IMG/VR virus record: IMGVR_UViG_3300045988_136773
Reading direction: 5' to 3' (one strand)
Source: a virus
Length of the DNA stretch: 64,000 nt
Made by a program: the position numbers and the translations under genes. Under the pieces are notes generated by a model. That model worked only from the letters and a program-made list of their open reading frames with translations, ran no database searches and had not been told where the DNA came from. The first letter of the stretch is position 1; the number at the start of each line of letters is the position of its first letter. Positions 6,141 through 53,400 of the stretch are shown here, piece after piece.

Positions 6141-9100
6141 ATGGCAAAGACACTTTGGAATGAAGGACGAGTTGTTGGATATTCAGCATATGAGCTATAT
6201 GTAAGACATGCAATCGCGACAGATCCGGAGCATCCACCAGTAGATGAAAAAACATGGCTTTCATCTATGCTTGGAATGGGAAACTCTATGGTGTTACATA
6301 TAGGGACAGATGAAGTTCAAGGTATGCACTATCGAGATTTCTCATTACCAGAATCATCTAGACTATGTGCAGCATCTACAATCATAGCCTCAGTATTTTT
6401 AGGGGCTGGAAGAAATGGTGATACAGATTTCAAAAGTGCAGAATCCGGATGGGCCACGTCTATTTCAGATTACGGAATTCTAATCAACAATACTAGTTCA
6501 AGTTCTCCTACTGGAACTGTAGATTCTAGCAGTGCTATACCACCAAGTACAATTTCAAATGTATCAGAATCAGAATATACTACATATGTATCAGAATACT
6601 CAAAAATCGTAGATGGCATAGTGATTCAGCCAGGAGCATGGTCAGATAATACAGAAAAACCACCAGAAAAGGCACTTGCTCCTAATATGACAGTTGTACC
6701 AACTTTGAGGATTGCATTTGCTGATCAAATCACACACCCATTTTATATTATATTGACAGGTTTTTTAAATCGATCTATTATAAGCACATTATCGAAAAGT
6801 ACATCGAATAATTCTGAAGATGGTGACTTTTTAGGTCCAGCAGAATTCCCATGGTCTTCTAAAATCGTATTTCAAACGCCAGCAGCATATGCATCTTTGT
6901 ATGCAAGTACGGATTATATCCGATCGCTTCCAAAACAAAATGACGCAGTCCATGTGACAACTGACAGTGTTATTGACACAGAAACCACGAATCCGATTGA
7001 TTTTTATGCACAAAATAGCCCAGTGTCTACGATCGATATAAATGTACAGAAACTAAAGACTGTAAAAGACGGTGCTTCTGTACTTGCAACATATTCAGCT
7101 TCAGATGATCTCCCACCTGCACTATATGGCATGCGACTAAAATCCGCAGTATCTAACTCAAATAATCCATATATCACATCTGTTGAATCACCGGTTTATG
7201 GATTATTTCACGGAGATGAATCTGACGCGTCGAAACTGGATTACACTATGTCAGATTCTGACTGGAATACATTATCACTGGTATCAAAAAATAAAAAAGA
7301 CGCTGGGTACACAATATCTAAGACCGTATTGAAGTCGATATGGAATGAACTGTGTCAAGATAGCTATAAGTATTCATATGCTAAAAACTTGTTTTATATA
7401 AACATGCAAGATGATTGTGCATTTAGTTTATTTCCTGCATCTGAAATTCAAACGCTAACCCAATATATTCGGCTGCTGAAAACTCCAGATTCAACATTTG
7501 CAACATATAAATTTCATTTTGATACCCCAGTATCAATCAAAAACAAATTGTACTATAACTTTACAATTGGTTGCCACCCAAGCATAGATTCTGTATTTTG
7601 GCTAACCCTCGGTGTATCATCAGATGATATTGCATTGCCAAACGCAATGTGTCCAATAGATACAACAGCACCAGGCACAGTAAAGCTATACACAGATCAA
7701 GATACTGCAAAAACATTAGAAGATAGCTATCCAAGTAATACCGCACTTATTCGTGATTCTGACTATGTAATACATCAGCTGAATCAGTATCAAGATATTG
7801 TGCCTGTATCTAAAGTAGAAACATCTTCAATTTTGAATGATTTATATGTATACAATCTAAGCATGATTAATCCATACTTAGTAGTTGACGGAAATTCTCC
7901 CAGAAACGGTGTTACTGTAAATGCACTATCTGGATATGATGCAAGTAAATCTGTTTGGGATAATGAACCGAATACATATACAATTACTTACAATGAAGAA
8001 ACATTGTCTGGTACATACCTGCAATCACACCCAGAAGAAAAACTAAAATACAATGAACCCGTTGTTATAGTAAAAAAGCGTATTGTTGGCTATCTGTCAG
8101 ATAAAATCAAAAATCTCTGTGGATATGAGTACGATCCAGATACTAAGAAATTAAAATCTGGAGGATACTGGGATAATGCGGTCCTCATATTATCGACTAT
8201 TCCAGAATCCAGAAGAACTGATTACTACTATATTGTACCGTCTACACGCTCAGACACTACAAGAACTCAGGATACGTTTGCTTGGCCAGTTCGTAAATCG
8301 GACAATTATGTAGATGTTACAGTACAGTATAGAATACGCATATTTGTTACAAAAACCACAAACTCTGGTGTAATTTCCTCTGAATACAAAATTCCGTCCA
8401 TGTCAAATACAGTACAGCTGTCTGATGGAACAGCAACACAAAGTGGTTTACTTGGAAGCATGTGGAATAATGGATCTAGTTCAGATGGTCTAACATACAA
8501 TCACGGATGGGCATATATTCACACAGATGATCAAGTGCACACCATATTAAAAGATGCAATGACACCTCTGAATGGTCAAAACAGCTGTATCTACGAAGGT
8601 GATACTCTGTTGCCGATGTATAATCTGTATCACACTAATATGACAGCAAGCGATGTGTTCGGGGTACAGTCCATGACAAACGCAGGGATTTTATCAAAAT
8701 TTCGAAGTATGTCCTTGCACGACTTCTTAGTAACTGCAATCACTACAGACATGGGTACAGGCCAAACCTTAAATAATAACATATCCGCGCATCGTGAAAA
8801 CCTGATACAGTCTGTATCATTTTATACAAATGGAAAGCACGAATCAGGTGCATTTACAAGTGCTGGTGATTTGCTGTTTACGTTGCAAAATAAAGTATCT
8901 ACTGATACCGTGGAAAAAACCATGTTATTATCAGTACCAAGCATGTATCAAGATAGTGCAGGAAATGCACCGCAATGTGCTATGATACAGACAGGTAATT
9001 TAAAATCTAGGGTTTTATCGCTTTCAGATCATGAAAATTCCCCTTATGGACTATATGGTGCATCTGGAACTATACAAAGTAACTCTGTTGGTAAGCTAAC

Positions 9101-9261: not shown

Positions 9262-9675
9262 ATGCTATTGTATAAAGTATACTCAGCGTCAAACAAAAAT
9301 CAATCAAAGATATCAGCAAGCCAAATAGTAAATAGACTTGGAAAGTATTTATATAACCATCTGGACGGTGCATTTCAGTATAAAAAATCCGGTAATACTT
9401 TTGATGTGTACACAACTTTGCTGTACGAATTAAAAGAAGAATTTGGTGGAATCAAAAATGACGTTCAAGAGATGACACTAAATATAAGTATAACTACATA
9501 TCAAAATAAGATTCGAGTAAATACAATTGAAGTATCCCCAGATGAAAGAACACTTGGGTATGATTTACTAAAGCCTGAGCTGTTAAATGATCTAGATACC
9601 GCAAAATCTGTGATTATGCAAAAAGTTCACAAACGGATTGATAAGGCATATGATCACCATATCACATTATATTGA
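9262..9675 (+). CDS. hypothetical protein
   Basis: ORF track. RBS is AGGTGGTG. Confidence 0.5.
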   Translation: MLLYKVYSASNKNQSKISASQIVNRLGKYLYNHLDGAFQYKKSGNTFDVYTTLLYELKEEFGGIKNDVQEMTLNISITTYQNKIRVNTIEVSPDERTLGYDLLKPELLNDLDTAKSVIMQKVHKRIDKAYDHHITLY

Positions 9676-31904: not shown

Positions 31905-31986
31905 TTTAATCCGATTCAATCCGTATAAATGACAAATGCCCTCTTTGAGAATTCATAGAGGGCATCTTGATAGAGGTGATAATCTC

Positions 31987-33348
31987 ATGGGACTATTTAA
32001 TGCTGCTCAGATGTCGCAGATAAAAGCGGCAGCTGTAAAAAGCAATAATGCTCTAACTGTTCCAGCAAAACGGAAAACAGTGTCTAAGAGCATCACATCA
32101 GACCTTGAAGAAATTTCACGAAACGTGGAAGAGTATTTCAAGGATTCTAATGCTATCCTCATTACGTCAAAAGCACAGCTACATGATTACGTTACAGAAC
32201 TTATAAAGACTGGCTACGCTGCAATTGATACAGAAACTACAGGTCTGGATCGGTTAAATGACACAATTGTTGGATCATCTTTATACTATCCTGGTGGTGT
32301 AGAGTGTTATATTCCAAATAAACACATTGTACCTATTTTTGATGAACCGTATGCAAATCAGCTTACATACGAAGATGTGACAGAAGAATATCAAAGAATA
32401 GCAGATAGCGATGTAAGACTGATTTTCGCAAATGCTGATTTCGACCTTGCTATGATCTACAAAGACCTCAAAGTAGATTTTATTAAGAGCTGCTACTATG
32501 ATTGTATCACTGCATGGCGCTGTCTGAAGGAAAATGAGAAAGATAACTCATTGAAGGGGTTGTATTGTAAATATGTATTGCGAGGTAAGGGAGATCCGAT
32601 GAAATTTCGAGATTTCTTTACGCCTGCACAGTTTCCATATTGTCGTCCTGAAATTGCAAAATTGTACGCTGCACATGATGCTAAGATTACCTATGAGTTA
32701 TTTATGTGGCAGTTGCCCTATTTACTGAAAGATAATCCAAAGTGCAAAAAACATGGATTTGAAGCAATTGCAGATTTGGTATGGAATGTAGAATTTCCCA
32801 TGATTGCAATTTGTCAGAATATGCACAGACGAGGCATTTATCTGGAAAAGTCGATGGCAAAGATGCTGCATGCGAAGTATATCCCAACACTGGAAAAAGA
32901 ACGTAGCAAGCTTCGTGATATGGTTCAGGAATTGATAGATGATCCAAAATATGTTACTAATACCAGATGCCCATTTAATTCAAGCGTTGATTTCAATGAA
33001 TGCTCATCAAAGCATGTTACATGGATTGTGTATGACCTATTACGTCTTGGTGATCCAAAACATAGAGGTACTGATAAATCAATTCTTAGTACATTTAATG
33101 TTCCGGTTGTCAATCAGATATTGAAGTGTCGGAGCTTGGTAACTTTGATTTCTACGTTTGTAGAAAAATTGCCAAATGCAACTTCTCCGGATAGCAGAAT
33201 TCATTGTGAGTTCCGAGCAATAGGAGCTGATACTGGGCGCATGTCATCCAAGTCACCAAACATGCAGAACATTCCTAGTAAGCATAATGATATTCGGCAT
33301 ATGTTCCGTGCAACTCCTGGATATGTACTTTTATCGTCAGACTTCAGT
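31987..33348 (+). CDS. polA: family A DNA polymerase, exon 1 (3'-5' exonuclease and start of the pol domain, ending inside motif A ..LLSSDFS)
   Basis: ATG at 31987 follows AGAGGTGA. The ExoI motif AIDTETTGL is present. The frame continues 17 nt into the intron to a TGA at 33364-33366. Confidence 0.85.
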
Positions 33349-33711
33349 TTACGGAAAGTTGGCTGAAGTAAAACTCTGTTAATTCGGGGAATGCCTATGA
33401 GATGTGGTTCACTTATGGGTTAATCCCGAGCAAGGTGCTATAGTACCGTGTGTAGAGATCATCGAAAGCTAGAAATTGACATTTGTAGAAATACATAAAT
33501 ATGAGTTTTCAATCATAGGTCAGTTGAGATAACCAAGTTAGTAGAGTACAGCTCAGGCGAGTTAGTGTTTAGGTGATATTACCCTATTGTAAATCTATTA
33601 AATGGAAATTCAGAGATTTGTGTATATGTGGTAACAGCTATGCACATTTAAGAGTTGATCCGACACCCTTAGTAATAAGGGAAGCGTTTAGCGAACGCAT
33701 AACCGATAAAG
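33349..33711 (+). ncRNA. group I intron (363 nt, no ORF) splitting polA motif A
   Basis: The exon junction restores DFS|QQEPK. The 5' exon ends in U and the intron ends in G. P1 pairs CUUCAGU (33342-33348) with GCUGAAG (33362-33368), with a U:G pair at the splice site. A 4-bp P10 joins 33358-33361 to 33712-33715. Confidence 0.75.
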
Positions 33712-35928
33712 CAGCAAGAACCAAAATTGACCGCATTTGTCAGTCAGGACGAAAATATGATCCGGTCTTTTCAGGAGAACAAGGATATTTATAGTTTCAT
33801 TGCGTCTATCGCATTTAATATGAGCTATGAAGATTGCCTTGAATTCAATCCTACTACCGGAGCTTATCAACCAGAAGGAAAAGCAAGACGTTCAGAATCT
33901 AAAAGTGTGGTACTTGGAATTTTATATGGACGTTCTATTAACACGATTGCAGACCAGCTATATAGTCATATGGATTGGTCTGATGAGAAGAAATTAAAAC
34001 AAGCACAGTATGTGTACGACTCAGTTCTGAATGCGTTTCCTGCACTCCGGAAACTGATGATTAATGCACAGAGATGCGCAAAAGAAAAGGGGTATGTTGA
34101 AACCATCCTTGGAAGAAGGCGGCATATTCCAGAAATGCAACTTCCAGAATTTGAATTTAAACCTTTGAAGGGTTATGTGAATCCGGACATTGATCCACTT
34201 GATGCGTCTACTTTGGATGTAACAGATGACATTCCAGATAGAGTAAAAGTCGCATTATATCGTGAATTAAAGTCTTATAAGTATTTTGGACAAGTTGCAA
34301 AACGTATCAGAGCACTTGCCGAAGAAGATCATATCAAGGTTATTAATAATAACCGCAAAATTGCTGATGGATCGAGACAGTGTGTAAACTGTGTTGATAC
34401 TGAGACAGAGATACTGACAACTTCCGGTTGGAAACGATACAATCAAGTTTCTGTAGGAGATTCTATTTTGAGTTATTCTATGAATCTGAATTGCATCACA
34501 CATGATAAAGTACAAGCAGTGCATATTTACCCCGGTGAACATGAAGTATTTGAGTTTAAGTCAAACGCATTCTCTGCGGTTTCCACTCCAAATCACAGAT
34601 GGGTTTGTCAAGCTGGGAATAAGGGGGCAAAGTTTGTTACTACAGAACACATCATGAATATTAAATGGGTTGATCCACCTATATTGCGGATGAGCGATAA
34701 CAATATTCCAGAATCATCATATAGCGATGATTTTATAAAATTGATTGGCTGGATTGCAACTGATGGGACCATTTCATCTAAGCATTATTGTGTAAGATTG
34801 TATCAAGACACTAAACGTGCTAAAGGTGCAGGTGTTTATCAAGATATGATTTCTGTGTTGCACCGTTTAGGTATCAAGTATACTGATAATGTTAGAAATA
34901 ACACTTATCATGATATATATTTGTATAAATGTGATGTGACACTGGATGTTTTAAATTTGCTAGAAAACCGAACATTGAAATATGAGTTTGTTTCAAGTTT
35001 ATCTGAACGGCAAGCAAATATTTTAATTAGTGCTATGATTCAGGGTGATGGTTGGACGAGTGGTAGTCAAACTTGCTATACTTGCAATTCTGCTGAAAAA
35101 GCTGATATATTTCAGTATTTGTGTGTGATTGGGGGTCATGTATCTCATATGTATAAAATCGATCCTACTGAATCATCTATTCACTATGGGAATGTTTCCA
35201 ATCCATCAGGGTATATAAATACAAAAAATCCGTATTATCTTGTTTATATAAATAAACGTAAACGAGCTCATATATATCCAGATCATAAATCTGCATCAGT
35301 GGTTGATACCGTTTGGTGCGTTACAACTGGAAATGGTACTTGGATTGCTCGACGAAATGGTAGTGTGTATATCACAGGAAACTCAATTATTCAAGGAAGT
35401 GCTGCTGATTTAACAAAATTAGCCATGCTGAAAGTAGAGAATAACCCAGAATGGAATAAGATTGGTGGTAGAGTCCTTGTTCCAGTTCATGATGAGCTGA
35501 TTGCAGAAGTTCCTATCGACAAGTGGAAAGAGGGTGGAGAGATTTTGAGTAGTTCTATGTGCTCTGCTGCAAATTTCCTACCATTTTCCATCAAATGTGA
35601 TGTCACAACAACATATCGCTGGTATGGTCTGGAATATCCATGTCGCTATAAACAGCCATTCACTGTACACCCTACAGAGAAGGATGAAATCGCCTGGATT
35701 CAGTATCATCTATTTGAAGTTGGGTATGATCTTCCTGTGTATAAAACAGCAGATGGGGGAAAGCCTGAAGGTGATGAAGCCCTTGGGGTAAATGGTGTAT
35801 GGAGTGACACCGTAGAATCCGATATGTTAGACTATTGCAATCGTTATAATATTACAGAGGGTGAGTTCCTAGAACACATCCATACAAAAGTGCATACTGG
35901 ATATGCACCCGGTGAAAAACACGTATAA
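33712..35928 (+). CDS. polA: family A DNA polymerase, exon 2 (motifs A-end, B, C), including an in-frame intein
   Basis: QQEPKLTAFVSQDENMIRSFQENKDIY, SKSVVLGILYG (motif B), GYVETILGRRRH, IIQGSAADL and VPVHDEL (motif C) are all present. Confidence 0.85.
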   Translation, partial: QQEPKLTAFVSQDENMIRSFQENKDIYSFIASIAFNMSYEDCLEFNPTTGAYQPEGKARRSESKSVVLGILYGRSINTIADQLYSHMDWSDEKKLKQAQYVYDSVLNAFPALRKLMINAQRCAKEKGYVETILGRRRHIPEMQLPEFEFKPLKGYVNPDIDPLDASTLDVTDDIPDRVKVALYRELKSYKYFGQVAKRIRALAEEDHIKVINNNRKIADGSRQCVNCVDTETEILTTSGWKRYNQVSVGDSILSYSMNLNCITHDKVQAVHIYPGEHEVFEFKSNAFSAVSTPNHRWVCQAGNKGAKFVTTEHIMNIKWVDPPILRMSDNNIPESSYSDDFIKLIGWIATDGTISSKHYCVRLYQDTKRAKGAGVYQDMISVLHRLGIKYTDNVRNNTYHDIYLYKCDVTLDVLNLLENRTLKYEFVSSLSERQANILISAMIQGDGWTSGSQTCYTCNSAEKADIFQYLCVIGGHVSHMYKIDPTESSIHYGNVSNPSGYINTKNPYYLVYINKRKRAHIYPDHKSASVVDTVWCVTTGNGTWIARRNGSVYITGNSIIQGSAADLTKLAMLKVENNPEWNKIGGRVLVPVHDELIAEVPIDKWKEGGEILSSSMCSAANFLPFSIKCDVTTTYRWYGLEYPCRYKQPFTVHPTEKDEIAWIQYHLFEVGYDLPVYKTADGGKPEGDEALGVNGVWSDTVESDMLDYCNRYNITEGEFLEHIHTKVHTGYAPGEKHV
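34390..35382 (+). mobile_element. intein (331 aa) with LAGLIDADG homing-endonuclease domain
   Basis: It starts with Cys (CVDTETEILTTSGW), has block B TPNHRW, two LAGLIDADG-like motifs (LIGWIATDG and LISAMIQGDGW), and ends ..VYITGN followed by Ser (SIIQGSAADL). Confidence 0.8.
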
Positions 35929-43887: not shown

Positions 43888-43892
43888 CCATT

Positions 43893-43922
43893 GTGGGTAT
43901 CCGTTTGGATACTCACTTTTTT
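43893..43922 (+). terminator. rho-independent terminator closing the replication block
   Basis: A 10-bp stem (gtgggtatcc / ggatactcac, with one G:U pair), a 4-nt loop and a T6 run. Confidence 0.7.
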
Positions 43923-43925
43923 CGT

Positions 43926-43940
43926 AACCTTATATAGCAT
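43926..43940 (+). promoter_or_regulatory. conserved phage motif AACCTTATATAGCAT (copy 3)
   Basis: Lies immediately after the terminator, 32 nt upstream of the ATG at 43973. Confidence 0.45.
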
Positions 43941-43972
43941 AGATGTATTAATTCTTTCGAGGAGGGACAACT

Positions 43973-44269
43973 ATGATTGCACCAAAAGATTTAAGTACAC
44001 TGTTATCTGCATCTGAGGCATTGAAATCTGCAAAAGAATCTGTAGATTCTCGTTTAGAATGTGCTGTTGCACGAGCGATAAACTATGCAGCAAATACAAG
44101 CGACGATGGAAATATTGTAGCAGATTGGAATCAACCGCTCACAGATGCTTTAATTACAAAGCTAGAATCATTAGGCTATACTGTAAAGCACAAGCTAGAC
44201 GCATATGGTAATCAGATTCAGAATTTTTATGTAATTTCGGCGTATAGTGGTGATGCACATGAATCATGA
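43973..44269 (+). CDS. hypothetical protein
   Basis: ORF track. RBS is GAGGAGGG. Confidence 0.55.
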   Translation: MIAPKDLSTLLSASEALKSAKESVDSRLECAVARAINYAANTSDDGNIVADWNQPLTDALITKLESLGYTVKHKLDAYGNQIQNFYVISAYSGDAHES

Positions 44270-45361: not shown

Positions 45362-45674
45362 TAAATCACTTCCACTTGTAGAAGATATCGATTTTCATTA
45401 CTTACTAGGTTTGCTTCCTCCACTTGAAAACATTCCGGAATTTGCATGGCTACCAGAGTTATTTTCAATTATTGGGGCAGAAAGTCTGATAACTTTATCA
45501 AAATATGCAGGTGGAGAAACTATTAAGATTCCTACCATAGCACAATTATCAAACAGTATTTTAGCATTACAGTATTTTTACGATTGCTATATATCAAATA
45601 AGATCCAGGCATCTGAAATACCAGATTCTATGCACAGTACCGTTGCAAAAATAAAGGAAATATACGATGCTTGA
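45354..45674 (+). CDS. hypothetical protein
   Basis: ORF track 45342..45674. ATG at 45354 overlaps the upstream stop. Confidence 0.5.
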   Translation: MTDKSLPLVEDIDFHYLLGLLPPLENIPEFAWLPELFSIIGAESLITLSKYAGGETIKIPTIAQLSNSILALQYFYDCYISNKIQASEIPDSMHSTVAKIKEIYDA

Positions 45675-45873
45675 AACAATATCTGAAATGACGAAGTCCG
45701 ATGCGATTCCATTTTACGATTATTATTCTAAGTATATGTCAGATGTGCAAGACAGCGATATAGATTTAGAGTTACATCGACTTCAAACAGTTAATAATCT
45801 TACAACTAATTCTATGATACAACTTGTAAATAGAATGGTTTTTGGTGGTGATGAAAATGATCCCTGCATCTAA
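45667..45873 (+). CDS. hypothetical protein
   Basis: ORF track. Coupled to its neighbours. Confidence 0.45.
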   Translation: MLETISEMTKSDAIPFYDYYSKYMSDVQDSDIDLELHRLQTVNNLTTNSMIQLVNRMVFGGDENDPCI

Positions 45874-46165
45874 ATTACAAAATAGTTATGTGAGCATATA
45901 TGCTTGCATGCGTAATTATATTTGGGATTTTCAAACAGTTGAAGCTCTTGCAGATTTAGAGATTGAAACCTATAAGAGATTTCCTAATCTTGATGTACTT
46001 GCTAGTGATTTTATAAAGTTGAAATCTCTGGTTGGATCAACAGATGTATATCACGATGACGATGAGTTTCAAAAAAGTTTTGAAAAATATGAGAATCTTT
46101 TAAATGATACTGATTCTATATATGCAAATCTGAAAACTTTCAGAAAGGTGGTAGTTGTAGCATGA
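45857..46165 (+). CDS. hypothetical protein
   Basis: ORF track 45842..46165. ATG at 45857 follows GGTGGTGA. Confidence 0.5.
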   Translation: MIPASKLQNSYVSIYACMRNYIWDFQTVEALADLEIETYKRFPNLDVLASDFIKLKSLVGSTDVYHDDDEFQKSFEKYENLLNDTDSIYANLKTFRKVVVVA

Positions 46166-46359
46166 GTATTAAGGTGAAAAAGACAAAGAAGCAGACTATT
46201 TCAGCGTCAAAATCTACTAAAAACTCAGGCAAATACACTGATGCGACAGATTCTATTACTGCTGCTATCTATGCACTCGGTGATAGTGCAAAATCTGGTG
46301 ATATTCTTGCACGAGAATCTATTGCAAATTTAAGTGTTATTTTGTTTGAACTTCAGTAA
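46162..46359 (+). CDS. hypothetical small basic protein
   Basis: ORF track. ATGA overlap with the upstream gene. Confidence 0.45.
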   Translation: MSIKVKKTKKQTISASKSTKNSGKYTDATDSITAAIYALGDSAKSGDILARESIANLSVILFELQ

Positions 46360-46366
46360 CTGACTG

Positions 46367-50404: not shown

Positions 50405-50416
50405 TGGGGTGATACC

Positions 50417-51898
50417 GTGAGTAGATTACTTGATAAACTAAATAAGAGCATAACTAAGCATGATGCTGTTTCTTATATAAGATCTATTGTTACCGGGTCT
50501 GTATTTCGGACGACTGATACAAGAGGTAATACTAGCATAACCGATATTAAATCTAAAATTGATACAATGCGAGGTCTTGCAAGGGATTCTCAAATTGCGA
50601 CAGCATTGTCCTATTATGCTACAGATGCTACTACAACGAATACATCTGGGCAAATTTTATGGGCTACATCTGATAACAAACAGTTAGCTGATATCATAAA
50701 TGGTCTTTTCAAGAAATGGAATATCAATTCTTACGCAAGAGACCATATTTTAGAACTTGCAACTATTGGTAACTTATATATACCAACAACAGATATGTAT
50801 AAGGAGTCCACTTATTCTACAAAACAGATTGGTATAGCCTTAGACAATAATACTATTCCAAACAGAGATTTTGATATTATTCCATCATATAAAATCCCTC
50901 CAGAAGATGTTCTGCATTTGTGGTATCAGGGACAACCATGCGGTTATATGTACGCACCAGATGATGATTTTAGCGGACACATTCGCTATCCTGAATCATC
51001 GATCATACACTTCTCTTTGGGTGGAATATTAGGTGACTACACAATTGACACCAAACAAGCTGATGGATCTGTAAAGACATGGGATATCATGTTTGCTGAA
51101 CCACTTATGAGCAATGCAATTTCACCTACACAGACATTAAATTTGTTAGAGGATGCAACACTACTTTCATCTTTGAGTCGTGTAGTGCGCTTTGTAAATG
51201 TAGACTGCGGTGATTCAAATGACGAAGAGGCTGTTACCGCATATTTGCAACAAATTAAAGATGCGATTGAGCAAAATCTGTCTATCAATACGTCTACTGG
51301 AGACGTTCAAAGCTTTGTAAATCCACAAAGCCCGAATAATTTAATTTACCTTCCAAAACGTAAAGGTCAAGATATTGTATCTATAACAGATTTGAACATG
51401 GCTGACTTTACAGAGGCTGATAATAACTTGTTGGAATATTATCAAAACAAGAAACTATCTGTTCTCGGTGTGCCAAAAGAAGCAATGAACTTTTCATCTA
51501 ATGAGGGTTTAGGCGGTGCTGGTTCTGTTATGTCACAGCGTTCTGCTCTATACGCTAATATTCTGACAAGAATAGAAACTGCATACAAAGCAGGGTGGAC
51601 GAGTGCATTGAATACATATTTCAAGTCAAATAATATGAGTGCATATGCTGATAACTTTGAGCTACACATGAATCCGATCATTACAACTCAATCTACAATT
51701 CAGTTTGACAGACGTGATTCTGCACTGAGTCAAGCGGATACATTTGTAAATGTTCTAAAGAATTTAGGTGTCACAAAATCAGATGCATACAGAGAAGGAC
51801 TATCTGAGATCCTCACAGAGGGATTTCCTCAAATGGGATCAGACGCTAATGGTTGGCGGTTAAATTTGGAAGAAGGAGATGATACAAGTGAACTCTAA
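50417..51898 (+). CDS. portal protein
   Basis: 493 aa, near terL. GTG start after GGGGTGA. No specific motif was verified. Confidence 0.55.
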   Translation: MSRLLDKLNKSITKHDAVSYIRSIVTGSVFRTTDTRGNTSITDIKSKIDTMRGLARDSQIATALSYYATDATTTNTSGQILWATSDNKQLADIINGLFKKWNINSYARDHILELATIGNLYIPTTDMYKESTYSTKQIGIALDNNTIPNRDFDIIPSYKIPPEDVLHLWYQGQPCGYMYAPDDDFSGHIRYPESSIIHFSLGGILGDYTIDTKQADGSVKTWDIMFAEPLMSNAISPTQTLNLLEDATLLSSLSRVVRFVNVDCGDSNDEEAVTAYLQQIKDAIEQNLSINTSTGDVQSFVNPQSPNNLIYLPKRKGQDIVSITDLNMADFTEADNNLLEYYQNKKLSVLGVPKEAMNFSSNEGLGGAGSVMSQRSALYANILTRIETAYKAGWTSALNTYFKSNNMSAYADNFELHMNPIITTQSTIQFDRRDSALSQADTFVNVLKNLGVTKSDAYREGLSEILTEGFPQMGSDANGWRLNLEEGDDTSEL

Positions 51899-52223
51899 TC
51901 AAGCATCTATATCAAATCTATTTTTCCATGATTTGAAGTTGTACAATAGCACAAATTTCAGAACATTGTGCAGATCTGATTTGACATCAGTTACACCAGA
52001 AACTGTAAAAGCGTTCAGTAGTGTAATTACACGATATTTTATTTTCGCTGAAAAGCATCCTGAAATTTCTGATTTACAACTGAGAATGTTGTACTTCCAG
52101 TTAAAGCTTGATATGATTGGACGGTATTTTGCAAATTATCCGAATGTAAACTCAGATGATCTAATTGCATTTCAGACAGAGCTAAAATACTACGTTGCAG
52201 AAGATGGTGATTCTGATGTCTGA
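51888..52223 (+). CDS. hypothetical protein
   Basis: ORF track 51879..52223. GTG at 51888 lies 9 nt after AGGAG. Confidence 0.45.
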   Translation: MNSNQASISNLFFHDLKLYNSTNFRTLCRSDLTSVTPETVKAFSSVITRYFIFAEKHPEISDLQLRMLYFQLKLDMIGRYFANYPNVNSDDLIAFQTELKYYVAEDGDSDV

Positions 52224-52833: not shown

Positions 52834-52835
52834 TT

Positions 52836-53078
52836 GTGGATAACAAAGCAATTGCAATTGTAACTGAATATGTTAAGAGTCATTTAGATGTAACAGATGG
52901 TAACATTGATTTTGGAGTGTATACAGTATGGAAATGCAAAGCACTTCAGAATTGGAAGTATCTGTTGTCTACCACATTGTTCGATGGTATGTACTATGAA
53001 CTGACATATAATGGTGACAAGCACGAGTGGTACCTTGACGCTTACAAGAAGTTTGAGAACAAAGTGATTACAGAGTGA
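52836..53078 (+). CDS. hypothetical protein
   Basis: ORF track. GTG start after GGTGA. Confidence 0.5.
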   Translation: MDNKAIAIVTEYVKSHLDVTDGNIDFGVYTVWKCKALQNWKYLLSTTLFDGMYYELTYNGDKHEWYLDAYKKFENKVITE

Positions 53079-53091
53079 TAGGAGTTAAATT

Positions 53092-53385
53092 ATGAAAAAG
53101 CTATTCATTTCACAGCCGATGCGTGGTAAATCCGACGAACAGATCATTGCAGAACGACGTACTGCAATTCAGACTGCAATGCATTATTTGAATGAAGATG
53201 TAGAAGTCATTGACAGTTTCTTTAAAGCTGCACCACATGACGCAAAGCCATTGTGGTTCCTTGGCAAGTCATTAGAACTTTTGTCCACTGCTGATGTAGT
53301 ATATTTCGCTGACGGATGGCAGGATTATAGGGGATGTAAAATTGAGCATGATTGTGCTGAAGCCTATGGTATCAAAATTTTATAA
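53092..53385 (+). CDS. DUF4406 / nucleoside 2-deoxyribosyltransferase-fold-like protein
   Basis: MKKLFISQPMRGKS.. and ADVVYFADGWQDYRGCKIEHDCAEAYGIKI fit the DUF4406 pattern as remembered. Confidence 0.4.
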   Translation: MKKLFISQPMRGKSDEQIIAERRTAIQTAMHYLNEDVEVIDSFFKAAPHDAKPLWFLGKSLELLSTADVVYFADGWQDYRGCKIEHDCAEAYGIKIL

Positions 53386-53400
53386 TTCTGGTGATGTACT

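Follow-up and report, generated by a model that had tools for sequence, protein, structure and literature searches.

Analysis of the window (the whole stretch of viral DNA under study, 64,000 nt) showed that its family A DNA polymerase gene is interrupted inside motif A by a 363-nt insertion at 33349-33711, and this insertion is very probably a group I intron of the phage IA type that carries no ORF. The insertion is exact, it belongs to a family of insertions that are specific for one site, and its RNA structure is conserved and covarying. A group I intron in motif A had been proposed in an earlier, sequence-only reading of this DNA, and the same-site homologues and a covarying core that includes P1, P10 and the P3/P7 pseudoknot now speak for that proposal. 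The parts of the gene are as follows.

31936 to 33348, plus strand: exon 1 of the family A DNA polymerase (Pfam DNA_pol_A_exo1, and DNA_pol_A positions 28-160)
33349 to 33711, plus strand: probable group I intron, ORF-less, 363 nt (alleles that lack it; seven same-site lineages; covariation; sub-threshold RF00028 match)
33711, plus strand: terminal G (omega G) at the predicted 3' splice site (G in all family members)
33712 to 35928, plus strand: exon 2, from QQEPKL.. to the stop codon, interrupted by the intein (Pfam DNA_pol_A from position 161; alignment to the related polymerase P0001)
34390 to 35382, plus strand: intein, 331 aa, running from Cys1 to a terminal Gly-Asn and followed by Ser+1, at RQCVN/SIIQGSAAD (absent in P0001 and in the sister genome L004; here and below a slash marks an insertion site)

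The upstream polymerase piece, an ORF at 31936-33366, passed through ..GYVLLSSDFS and reached a stop codon 18 nt later, and the downstream frame was open from 33703 and coded for QQEPKLTAFVSQDENMIRSFQENKDIY.. from 33712. When 33348 was joined to 33712 the frame was kept and the product read ..GYVLLSSDFSQQEPKLTAFVSQDENMIRSF.. across the junction. The Pfam profile DNA_pol_A was covered from position 28 to 160 by exon 1 and picked up at 161 by exon 2, and the exact meeting of the two protein pieces at 160/161 counts in favour of the intron boundaries. In the alignment to Taq polymerase, LVALDYSQIELRV stood opposite the window's LLSSDFSQQEPKL, which is motif A; LLSSDFS/QQEPKL was placed opposite LVALDYS/QIELRV of Taq, with the catalytic aspartate included. 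The break splits the motif between the Ser and Gln codons (D-F-S/Q-Q-E), and on the standard Klenow numbering (D705, E710) it lies between S707 and Q708 of E. coli Pol I. The frame had earlier been described as breaking after ..SSDFS, resuming at 33712 and restoring motif A when joined, and the in-frame joining and the Pfam 160/161 junction agree with this, the distance to the stop codon being 18 nt here and 17 nt in that description.

The insertion itself contained stop codons in all three frames and did not differ in G+C content from the remainder of the window. Exon 1 codes for the 3'-5' exonuclease domain and, as far as motif A (..SSDFS), for the N-terminal part of the polymerase domain, and the true start of the protein is probably ATG 31987 (MGLFNAAQ..) and not the listed ATG 31936, judging from relatives that begin MGLF... 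The exons and the intein showed zero stops and zero frameshifts. The closest polymerases were those of Clostridium, Streptococcus and Bacillus phages (35% identity or less), and megablast of the polymerase region against GenBank phages gave no match. The window comes from an uncultivated gut phage whose lineage has no cultured relative (best protein identity 35%). A T4-like portal gene was also present in the window (50405-51898).

Alleles without the insertion were obtained by a search with the mature polymerase, from which intron and intein had been removed. Thousands of relatives were found, and the best 120 were mostly uninterrupted proteins of 855-870 aa. The polymerase P0001 (~79% identical) was uninterrupted and read ..LLSSDFSQQEPKLTAF.., the syntenic sister genome L004 (~96% DNA identity) aligned up to the junction and resumed exactly at 33712, and the IMG/VR contig L008 resumed exactly at 33712 as well, with a 99.6% aa-identical segment that contained no insertion. 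The insertion was missing from L004, L008 and L005; L004, L008 and P0001 read DFSQQEPK unbroken, and the sequence of the unoccupied site in L008 and L004 was ..GACTTTTCACAGCAAGAACC... Because L004, L008 and P0001 read straight through, the insertion can be fixed to the base at 33349-33711.

Comparison of the window with L008 over the 150-nt 5' flank showed a difference in the last four bases only, TTCA in L008 and CAGT in the window. The last two codons before the site are TTT TCA in L008 and TTC AGT in the window, a synonymous change in which the serine codon family was switched, and the four differing bases are those that pair with the guide in P1. Either a very short tract of co-conversion or selection acting on P1 pairing could account for the difference. 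A strict tie between the AGT serine codon and the presence of the intron was considered and rejected, as distant intron-less alleles also use AGT or AGC; the association holds within the close Phe clade only. Since AGT is also found in some distant alleles that have no intron, the four-base difference cannot serve as a universal marker. The contig L039 (IMGVR_UViG_3300031993_000114) contained, at ~2904-2926 on the reverse strand, the exact ligated-exon sequence GACTTCAGT/CAGCAAGAACCAAA in an intron-free, distant Pol A. It was rejected as proof of precise intron loss, being a distant relative only, and it is a naturally unoccupied site whose sequence matches the predicted ligated exons.

Both splice sites had the form expected from the first description of the insertion (363 nt, 5' exon ending in U33348, intron ending in G33711), in keeping with the intron-less alleles; the exon-terminal U and the intron-terminal G were present in 10/10 family sequences. 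The two guide pairings were as follows.

33341 to 33369, plus strand: P1, exon strand 33341-33348 (ACUUCAGU) with guide 33362-33369 (GCUGAAGU), 8/8 pairs in 10/10 sequences
33358 to 33361, plus strand: P10 guide strand GUUG, pairing with exon 2 CAGC (33712-33715), supported by covariation

The pairing of the guide at 33362-33368 with exon bases 33342-33348, with a U:G at the splice site, had been noticed before, and P1 was found to be one pair longer (A33341-U33369). The wobble U33348•G33362 at the 5' splice site was invariant (10/10 sequences), and the P1 loop (33349-33361) holds the P10 guide. Pair 8/30 of P1 was compensatory, with AU in 8 sequences and UA in 2, and it tracked the Phe/Tyr codon: Phe alleles, the window type, have CUUCAGU:GCUGAAG and Tyr alleles have CUACAGU:GCUGUAG. 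The P10 pairing of GUUG (33358-33361) with CAGC, likewise put forward earlier, was strengthened in the same way, with 95% of cells paired and 3/4 pairs changed on both sides across the family; its variants were GUUG:CAGC/CAAC, GUGU:GCAC (in alleles that have Ala-Gln at the beginning of exon 2) and GCUG:CAGC.

A three-frame check found no endonuclease ORF in the window intron. The ORF listed at 33573-33794 lies +1 relative to exon 2, overlaps conserved RNA helices and had no meaningful match in Pfam, and it is judged spurious because it is out of frame, lies on conserved helices and has no family match. The sequence-only reading had come to the same view on both points.

For the secondary structure, 10 sequences were aligned in MAFFT after removal of the ORF interiors, the exon flanks of 12 nt being retained. 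The P3-P9 core that the sequence-only reading had left to be modelled could be drawn in full, as a structure of 68 pairs in 14 helices in which 97.4% of cells were paired (31-40% when the partners were slid by 1-3 columns), and 40/68 pairs were changed on both sides (3-11 in the slid controls); because the window sequence was used in part to draw the structure, the paired fraction is biased upward, and the double-change counts are not. None of 500 shuffles matched the observed pairing values. The helices and joining segments are listed in sequence order.

33374 to 33378, plus strand: P3 5' strand CUCUG, pairing with 33611-33615 (CAGAG); 5/5 pairs changed on both sides, 100% paired
33384 to 33429, plus strand: P4 (33384-33389 with 33424-33429) and P5 (33394-33398 with 33415-33419); 100% and 97.5% paired, 3 + 3 pairs covarying
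33434 to 33447, plus strand: P6 hairpin GGUGC-UAUA-GUACC, the position of the endonuclease ORF in relatives
33455 to 33461, plus strand: P7 5' strand (G, bulged A33456, GAUCA), pairing with 33656-33661 (UGAUCC); 6/6 pairs, 100% paired
33477 to 33597, plus strand: peripheral domain between P7 and P3', with covarying helices and homology to Staphylococcus phage sequences
33477-80 with 33519-22, plus strand: P7.1; and 33484-87 with 33492-95, P7.1a, closed by a GAAA loop
33501-04 with 33513-16, plus strand: P7.1b
33542-44 with 33595-97, plus strand: P7.2 three-way junction, with hairpins at 33550-63 and 33570-86
33620 to 33645, plus strand: P8, a hairpin whose loop UGGUAACAG is invariant; covariation in its outer 4 pairs, with the paired fraction (77.5%) lowered by MAFFT slips
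33666 to 33698, plus strand: P9 (CCCUUA-GUAA-UAAGGG, GNRA loop) and P9.1 (33684-87 with 33695-98); 100% paired, 5 + 2 pairs covarying

The core helices were in canonical order and P7 formed a pseudoknot with P3. Three pair types (CG, GC and UA) occurred at one position of P7, and G33455, the bulged A33456 and the pair G33457-C33660 were invariant in the family; by analogy with other group I introns, P7 would be the guanosine-binding helix. J4/5 and J5/4 were A-rich and the P9.1 loop UAGCGAA was conserved. Distal P5, P6 and P8 vary in length, and the apparent breaks there are register slips of MAFFT. The minimum free energy fold recovered P1, P4-P6, P7.1, P8, P9 and P9.1 independently (z = -3.6), and the copy of the intron in the metagenome contig L030 carried five substitutions, all compatible with the structure (wobble to Watson-Crick or the reverse, or in loops). 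P2 was absent, with AAAA alone between P1 and P3 in all members, which is atypical for the classic IA2 introns of T4 and Twort. The covarying P7.1/P7.2 between P7 and P3' places the intron in the IA class, within which it may be of IA2 or of a P2-less, IA3-like type.

Results obtained from Rfam were weaker. No family reached its gathering threshold in the whole window, and a whole-window scan at a permissive E-value did not list Intron_gpI. A search of 551 nt matched RF00028 (Intron_gpI) at 15 bits (E = 0.27; gathering score 50), with P4-P5, P7 and P9 sensibly placed and P3' misplaced because the ~150-nt P7.1/P7.2 insertion sits between P7 and P3'. The same-site intron of the contig L023 scored 50.2 bits on Intron_gpI and meets the gathering score of 50, and because a same-site homologue reaches the threshold, the low score of the window copy is read as insensitivity of the model and not as counter-evidence. 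The Infernal search proposed in the sequence-only reading thus gave a match to RF00028, at a sub-threshold score of 15 bits; that reading had also taken a lack of any covariance-model hit, together with the lack of a spliced junction in RNA, as a sign of a truly split polymerase, a rule that would have misled because the hit is only sub-threshold.

A pattern built from the family-invariant single-stranded segments detected 5 viral and 10 metagenomic loci, human gut included, and no loci in isolate genomes; an earlier core pattern, based on the alignment with the Staphylococcus phages, had no hits in viral contigs. All of the pattern loci (15/15) lay at one Pol A site, D[FY]S/[QA]QEP. Seven lineages occupied the polymerase site, from gut, rumen and viral contigs. 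Four were ORF-less (307-363 nt) and three were ~1.1 kb long with a ~241-aa ORF in the P6 loop; L011, for example, had a 1127-nt insertion and L023 a 307-nt insertion at the same codon boundary. The ~241-aa ORF of L011, L024 and L038 is a GIY-YIG endonuclease (Pfam PF01541, E = 4e-11), and it weakly resembles the catalytic domain of I-TevI (1MK0, E = 0.005). In L024, L028 and L038 the ORF occupies the P6 loop and closes with ..YRV*, its stop codon falling within the core string CGUGUGUAGAG, and the window intron keeps this core string as UACCGUGUGUAG.

At least three independent contigs from metagenomes (L029, L030 and L033) carried copies identical or near-identical to the window intron, and a family HMM run over the window found one copy only. 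From these comparisons the intron would belong to a mobile family that targets one site, the window copy being a form without the endonuclease. A copy of this kind could move only through recombination, or with the help in trans of an endonuclease from a co-infecting relative. This is a new intron family within a well-known class of elements, and E. coli S707/Q708 is apparently a new insertion site relative to the documented Pol A sites, the later literature having been covered only in part.

In the proposed mechanism, the polymerase gene would be transcribed through the intron and the guide GCUGAAGU would pair with the last eight exon bases as P1, which would place U33348 in the U•G wobble. 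Free guanosine bound in P7 would then attack after U33348, the terminal G33711 would take the guanosine site, and P10 (GUUG:CAGC) would align exon 2. Exon ligation would give ..GAC UUC AGU CAG CAA.. and a single polymerase ORF, the predicted spliced junction being ..GACTTCAGT/CAGCAAGAAC.. (also given as GACTTCAGT/CAGCAAGAACC), and the mature polymerase would additionally require protein splicing of the intein. Splicing, catalysis, guanosine binding in P7 and homing are predictions.

Three other explanations of the insertion were weighed. It could be a group I intron that does not splice by itself and depends on a protein cofactor, either maturase-like or a host factor. The missing P2 and the unusually large peripheral domain would suit this, but the phage IA introns tested generally self-splice in vitro (PMC3428280, PMC11878797) and the ORF-less form persists without an intron-encoded protein, and such dependence is considered improbable. 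Still less probable is a decayed, non-splicing intron that would make the polymerase allele a pseudogene, for instance in a defective or satellite-dependent genome. An endonuclease that was lost or never present and the low Rfam score would agree with decay, whereas the core helices, the U•G, the terminal G and the invariant joining segments are all intact, the copies in L029, L030 and L033 differ by few substitutions with pairing preserved, the exons and intein are free of stops and frameshifts, and this is the sole polymerase seen in an otherwise intact replication module.

The least probable explanation, and one that can hardly be sustained, is a truly split polymerase of two separately translated subunits with 33349-33711 as a spacer or regulatory RNA: the in-frame stop 18 nt into the insertion, a TTG at 33727 that could start the second ORF and the Rfam score below threshold would allow it, but the break falls between the catalytic Asp-Phe-Ser and the Gln-x-Glu of motif A, a start at TTG 33727 would remove QQEPK, near-identical strains encode the unbroken protein, the spacer has a conserved group I fold with a guide that pairs, and covaries, with the ends of both exons, and the same-site relatives carry a homing endonuclease. 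The reading of 33349-33711 as an ORF-less group I intron is preferred.

Group I introns are known in the Pol A genes of several phages, namely SPO1/SP82/Bastille, Pf-WMP3, phiL7 and the T7-like PhiI/W31 (PMC3428280), and polymerase genes of Bastillevirinae hold up to three introns (PMC11878797). The published Pol A sites are at E. coli 674, 676 and 881 and the introns there encode HNH endonucleases (PMC3428280), and those tested (SPO1, Bastille and Pf-WMP3) generally self-splice in vitro (PMC3428280, PMC11878797). The window intron resembles them in its IA class, in its location in a conserved, catalytically important part of Pol A and in having mobile family members with a P6 endonuclease (PMC3428280). 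It differs in its site, 707/708 in motif A as against 674, 676 and 881, and in its endonuclease, the HNH nicking enzymes of those introns being replaced by GIY-YIG in the window's family and by none in the window copy. BLAST detected no sequence similarity between the window intron and the GenBank phage polymerase introns.

The T4 td intron with I-TevI is likewise of IA type with P7.1/P7.2, and its GIY-YIG ORF is looped out of P6 as in the window's family; in contrast, it lies in a thymidylate synthase gene and has a P2, and the window copy is ORF-less. The similarity between I-TevI and the family endonuclease is weak and confined to the catalytic domain.

BLAST of the intron against GenBank phages gave matches of 70-80 nt only (78-87% identity), and these fell in unannotated gaps in recA of Silviavirus qdsa001 and in terL of the jumbo phages PALS_2 and Machias.

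L001 (qdsa001), 2256 to 2642: gap in a recA-like gene
L002 and L003 (PALS_2 and Machias), ~2481 to 2725: gap in terL

The qdsa001 recA gap scored 42 bits on Rfam Intron_gpI, and all three gaps behave as group I introns. The segment in common with the window intron spans the P7.2 three-way junction and also P3', and one hairpin in it shows a compensatory change, but the gaps lie in other genes and hosts, the rest of their sequence cannot be aligned by BLAST, and the recA intron has a P2.

In crAss-like gut phages of the Delta and Zeta groups, core replication genes contain several group I introns and inteins (PMC7886860), and as in the window the two kinds of element sometimes occur together in one gene. 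The nearest counterparts of the window polymerase (35%) come from phages of Clostridium, Streptococcus and Bacillus, and the portal gene is T4-like. In the crAss phages the introns were recognised by the endonuclease domains that they encode, and a search of that kind would overlook the ORF-less intron of the window.

The second element of the window polymerase lies in exon 2. Residues CVDTETEIL...VYITGN are exactly missing from P0001 and L004, which read RQCVNSIIQGSAAD at this point, and another relative, P0029, has an intein at the same site. The element has a LAGLIDADG_3 domain (25.5 bits), a weak match of its N-terminus to the intein structure 6zgq (E = 0.029) and Gly as its penultimate residue where His is usual. 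Its in-frame position, C1, terminal Asn, Ser+1 and absence in orthologues mark it as an intein. That the same gene also carries an intein had been pointed out in the sequence-only reading, and the element at 34390-35382, precisely absent from P0001, agrees with this.

Further elements were seen in related polymerase genes. The sister genome L004 (Logan ERR11594658_540; 7297-8470 and 9282-9617) has neither element of the window polymerase; it has a different intein at GAD/TGRMSS and a putative group I intron of ~336 nt after SIIQG (..CAGGGT/AAACC...GCTCG/AGTGCT..; a partial Rfam match of 23 bits), 15 nt downstream of the window's intein site. The two genomes (96% identical) thus hold four elements with none in common, which implies very fast turnover, none of the four being shared by near-identical strains. 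Mutual exclusion of neighbouring elements, suggested by the pattern in the window and L004, was rejected, since L023 and L024 fill several adjacent sites.

L030 (2587-2891) has the motif A intron and an extra insertion of ~305 nt after residue 153 of the 248-aa query segment, a site that is also interrupted in L023, L024, L026, L031, L034 and L037 and is not interrupted in the window. The polymerase of L023 (= L025, L036; 1027-3005) has at least four interruptions within 248 codons, and three of the insertions match Rfam Intron_gpI at 30-50 bits. One interruption, after SP/NMQNIP, corresponds by alignment to E. coli P674/N675, the classic SPO1/Bastille/Pf-WMP3 site. A stretch of ~173 nt in L023 (~1973-2146), between ..RATPP and PAYVMLSSDYS, shifts the frame, and its length is not divisible by three; a typical group I intron would be longer, and the stretch may be a very small intron, the result of a frameshift or an artefact of assembly.

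Four regions of the window lack long open frames and lie between same-strand genes (43888-44234, 45362-46363, 51899-52185 and 52834-53394). The first follows a clamp-loader-like ORF, and 51899-52185 and 52834-53394 flank ORFs near the portal gene (50405-51898). When other introns were sought in the gaps 43888-44234, 51899-52185 and 52834-53394, no Rfam signal and no split Pfam domains were found. The segment 23840-23940 gave a cluster of weak Rfam matches (20-29 bits) to unrelated hairpin families (trpB motif, microRNA precursors), as would be expected if a strong hairpin or palindrome lay there.

These results leave the established view of group I introns as it was. Tentatively, and at somewhat less than an even chance, the window intron may be the first representative of a separate subclass, so far uncatalogued, among the group I introns of phages. 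Such a subclass would be P2-less, with enlarged P7.1/P7.2 containing the three-way junction shared with Staphylococcus phages and a GIY-YIG gene in P6, and it would be specialised for a new target, the Ser/Gln junction of motif A. It would live in a lineage of uncultivated phages from gut and rumen whose polymerase gene, with no fewer than six or seven distinct sites for introns and inteins, is a hot spot. The site, which adjoins the catalytic aspartate, adds a position to the few documented Pol A intron sites.

To gene callers, the polymerase appears as two truncated ORFs and a spurious 73-aa ORF. The loads of divergent, ORF-less IA introns in metagenomic phages are likely underestimated, because default Rfam and endonuclease-domain searches miss the window intron, and the 10-sequence structural alignment could seed a covariance model. 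The family is a clean natural case of P1 and P10 guides that co-evolve with codon choice (Phe/Tyr, Gln/Ala), it shows the cycle of endonuclease gain and loss, and in the polymerase, a single essential gene, introns and inteins turn over rapidly between genomes that are 96% identical.
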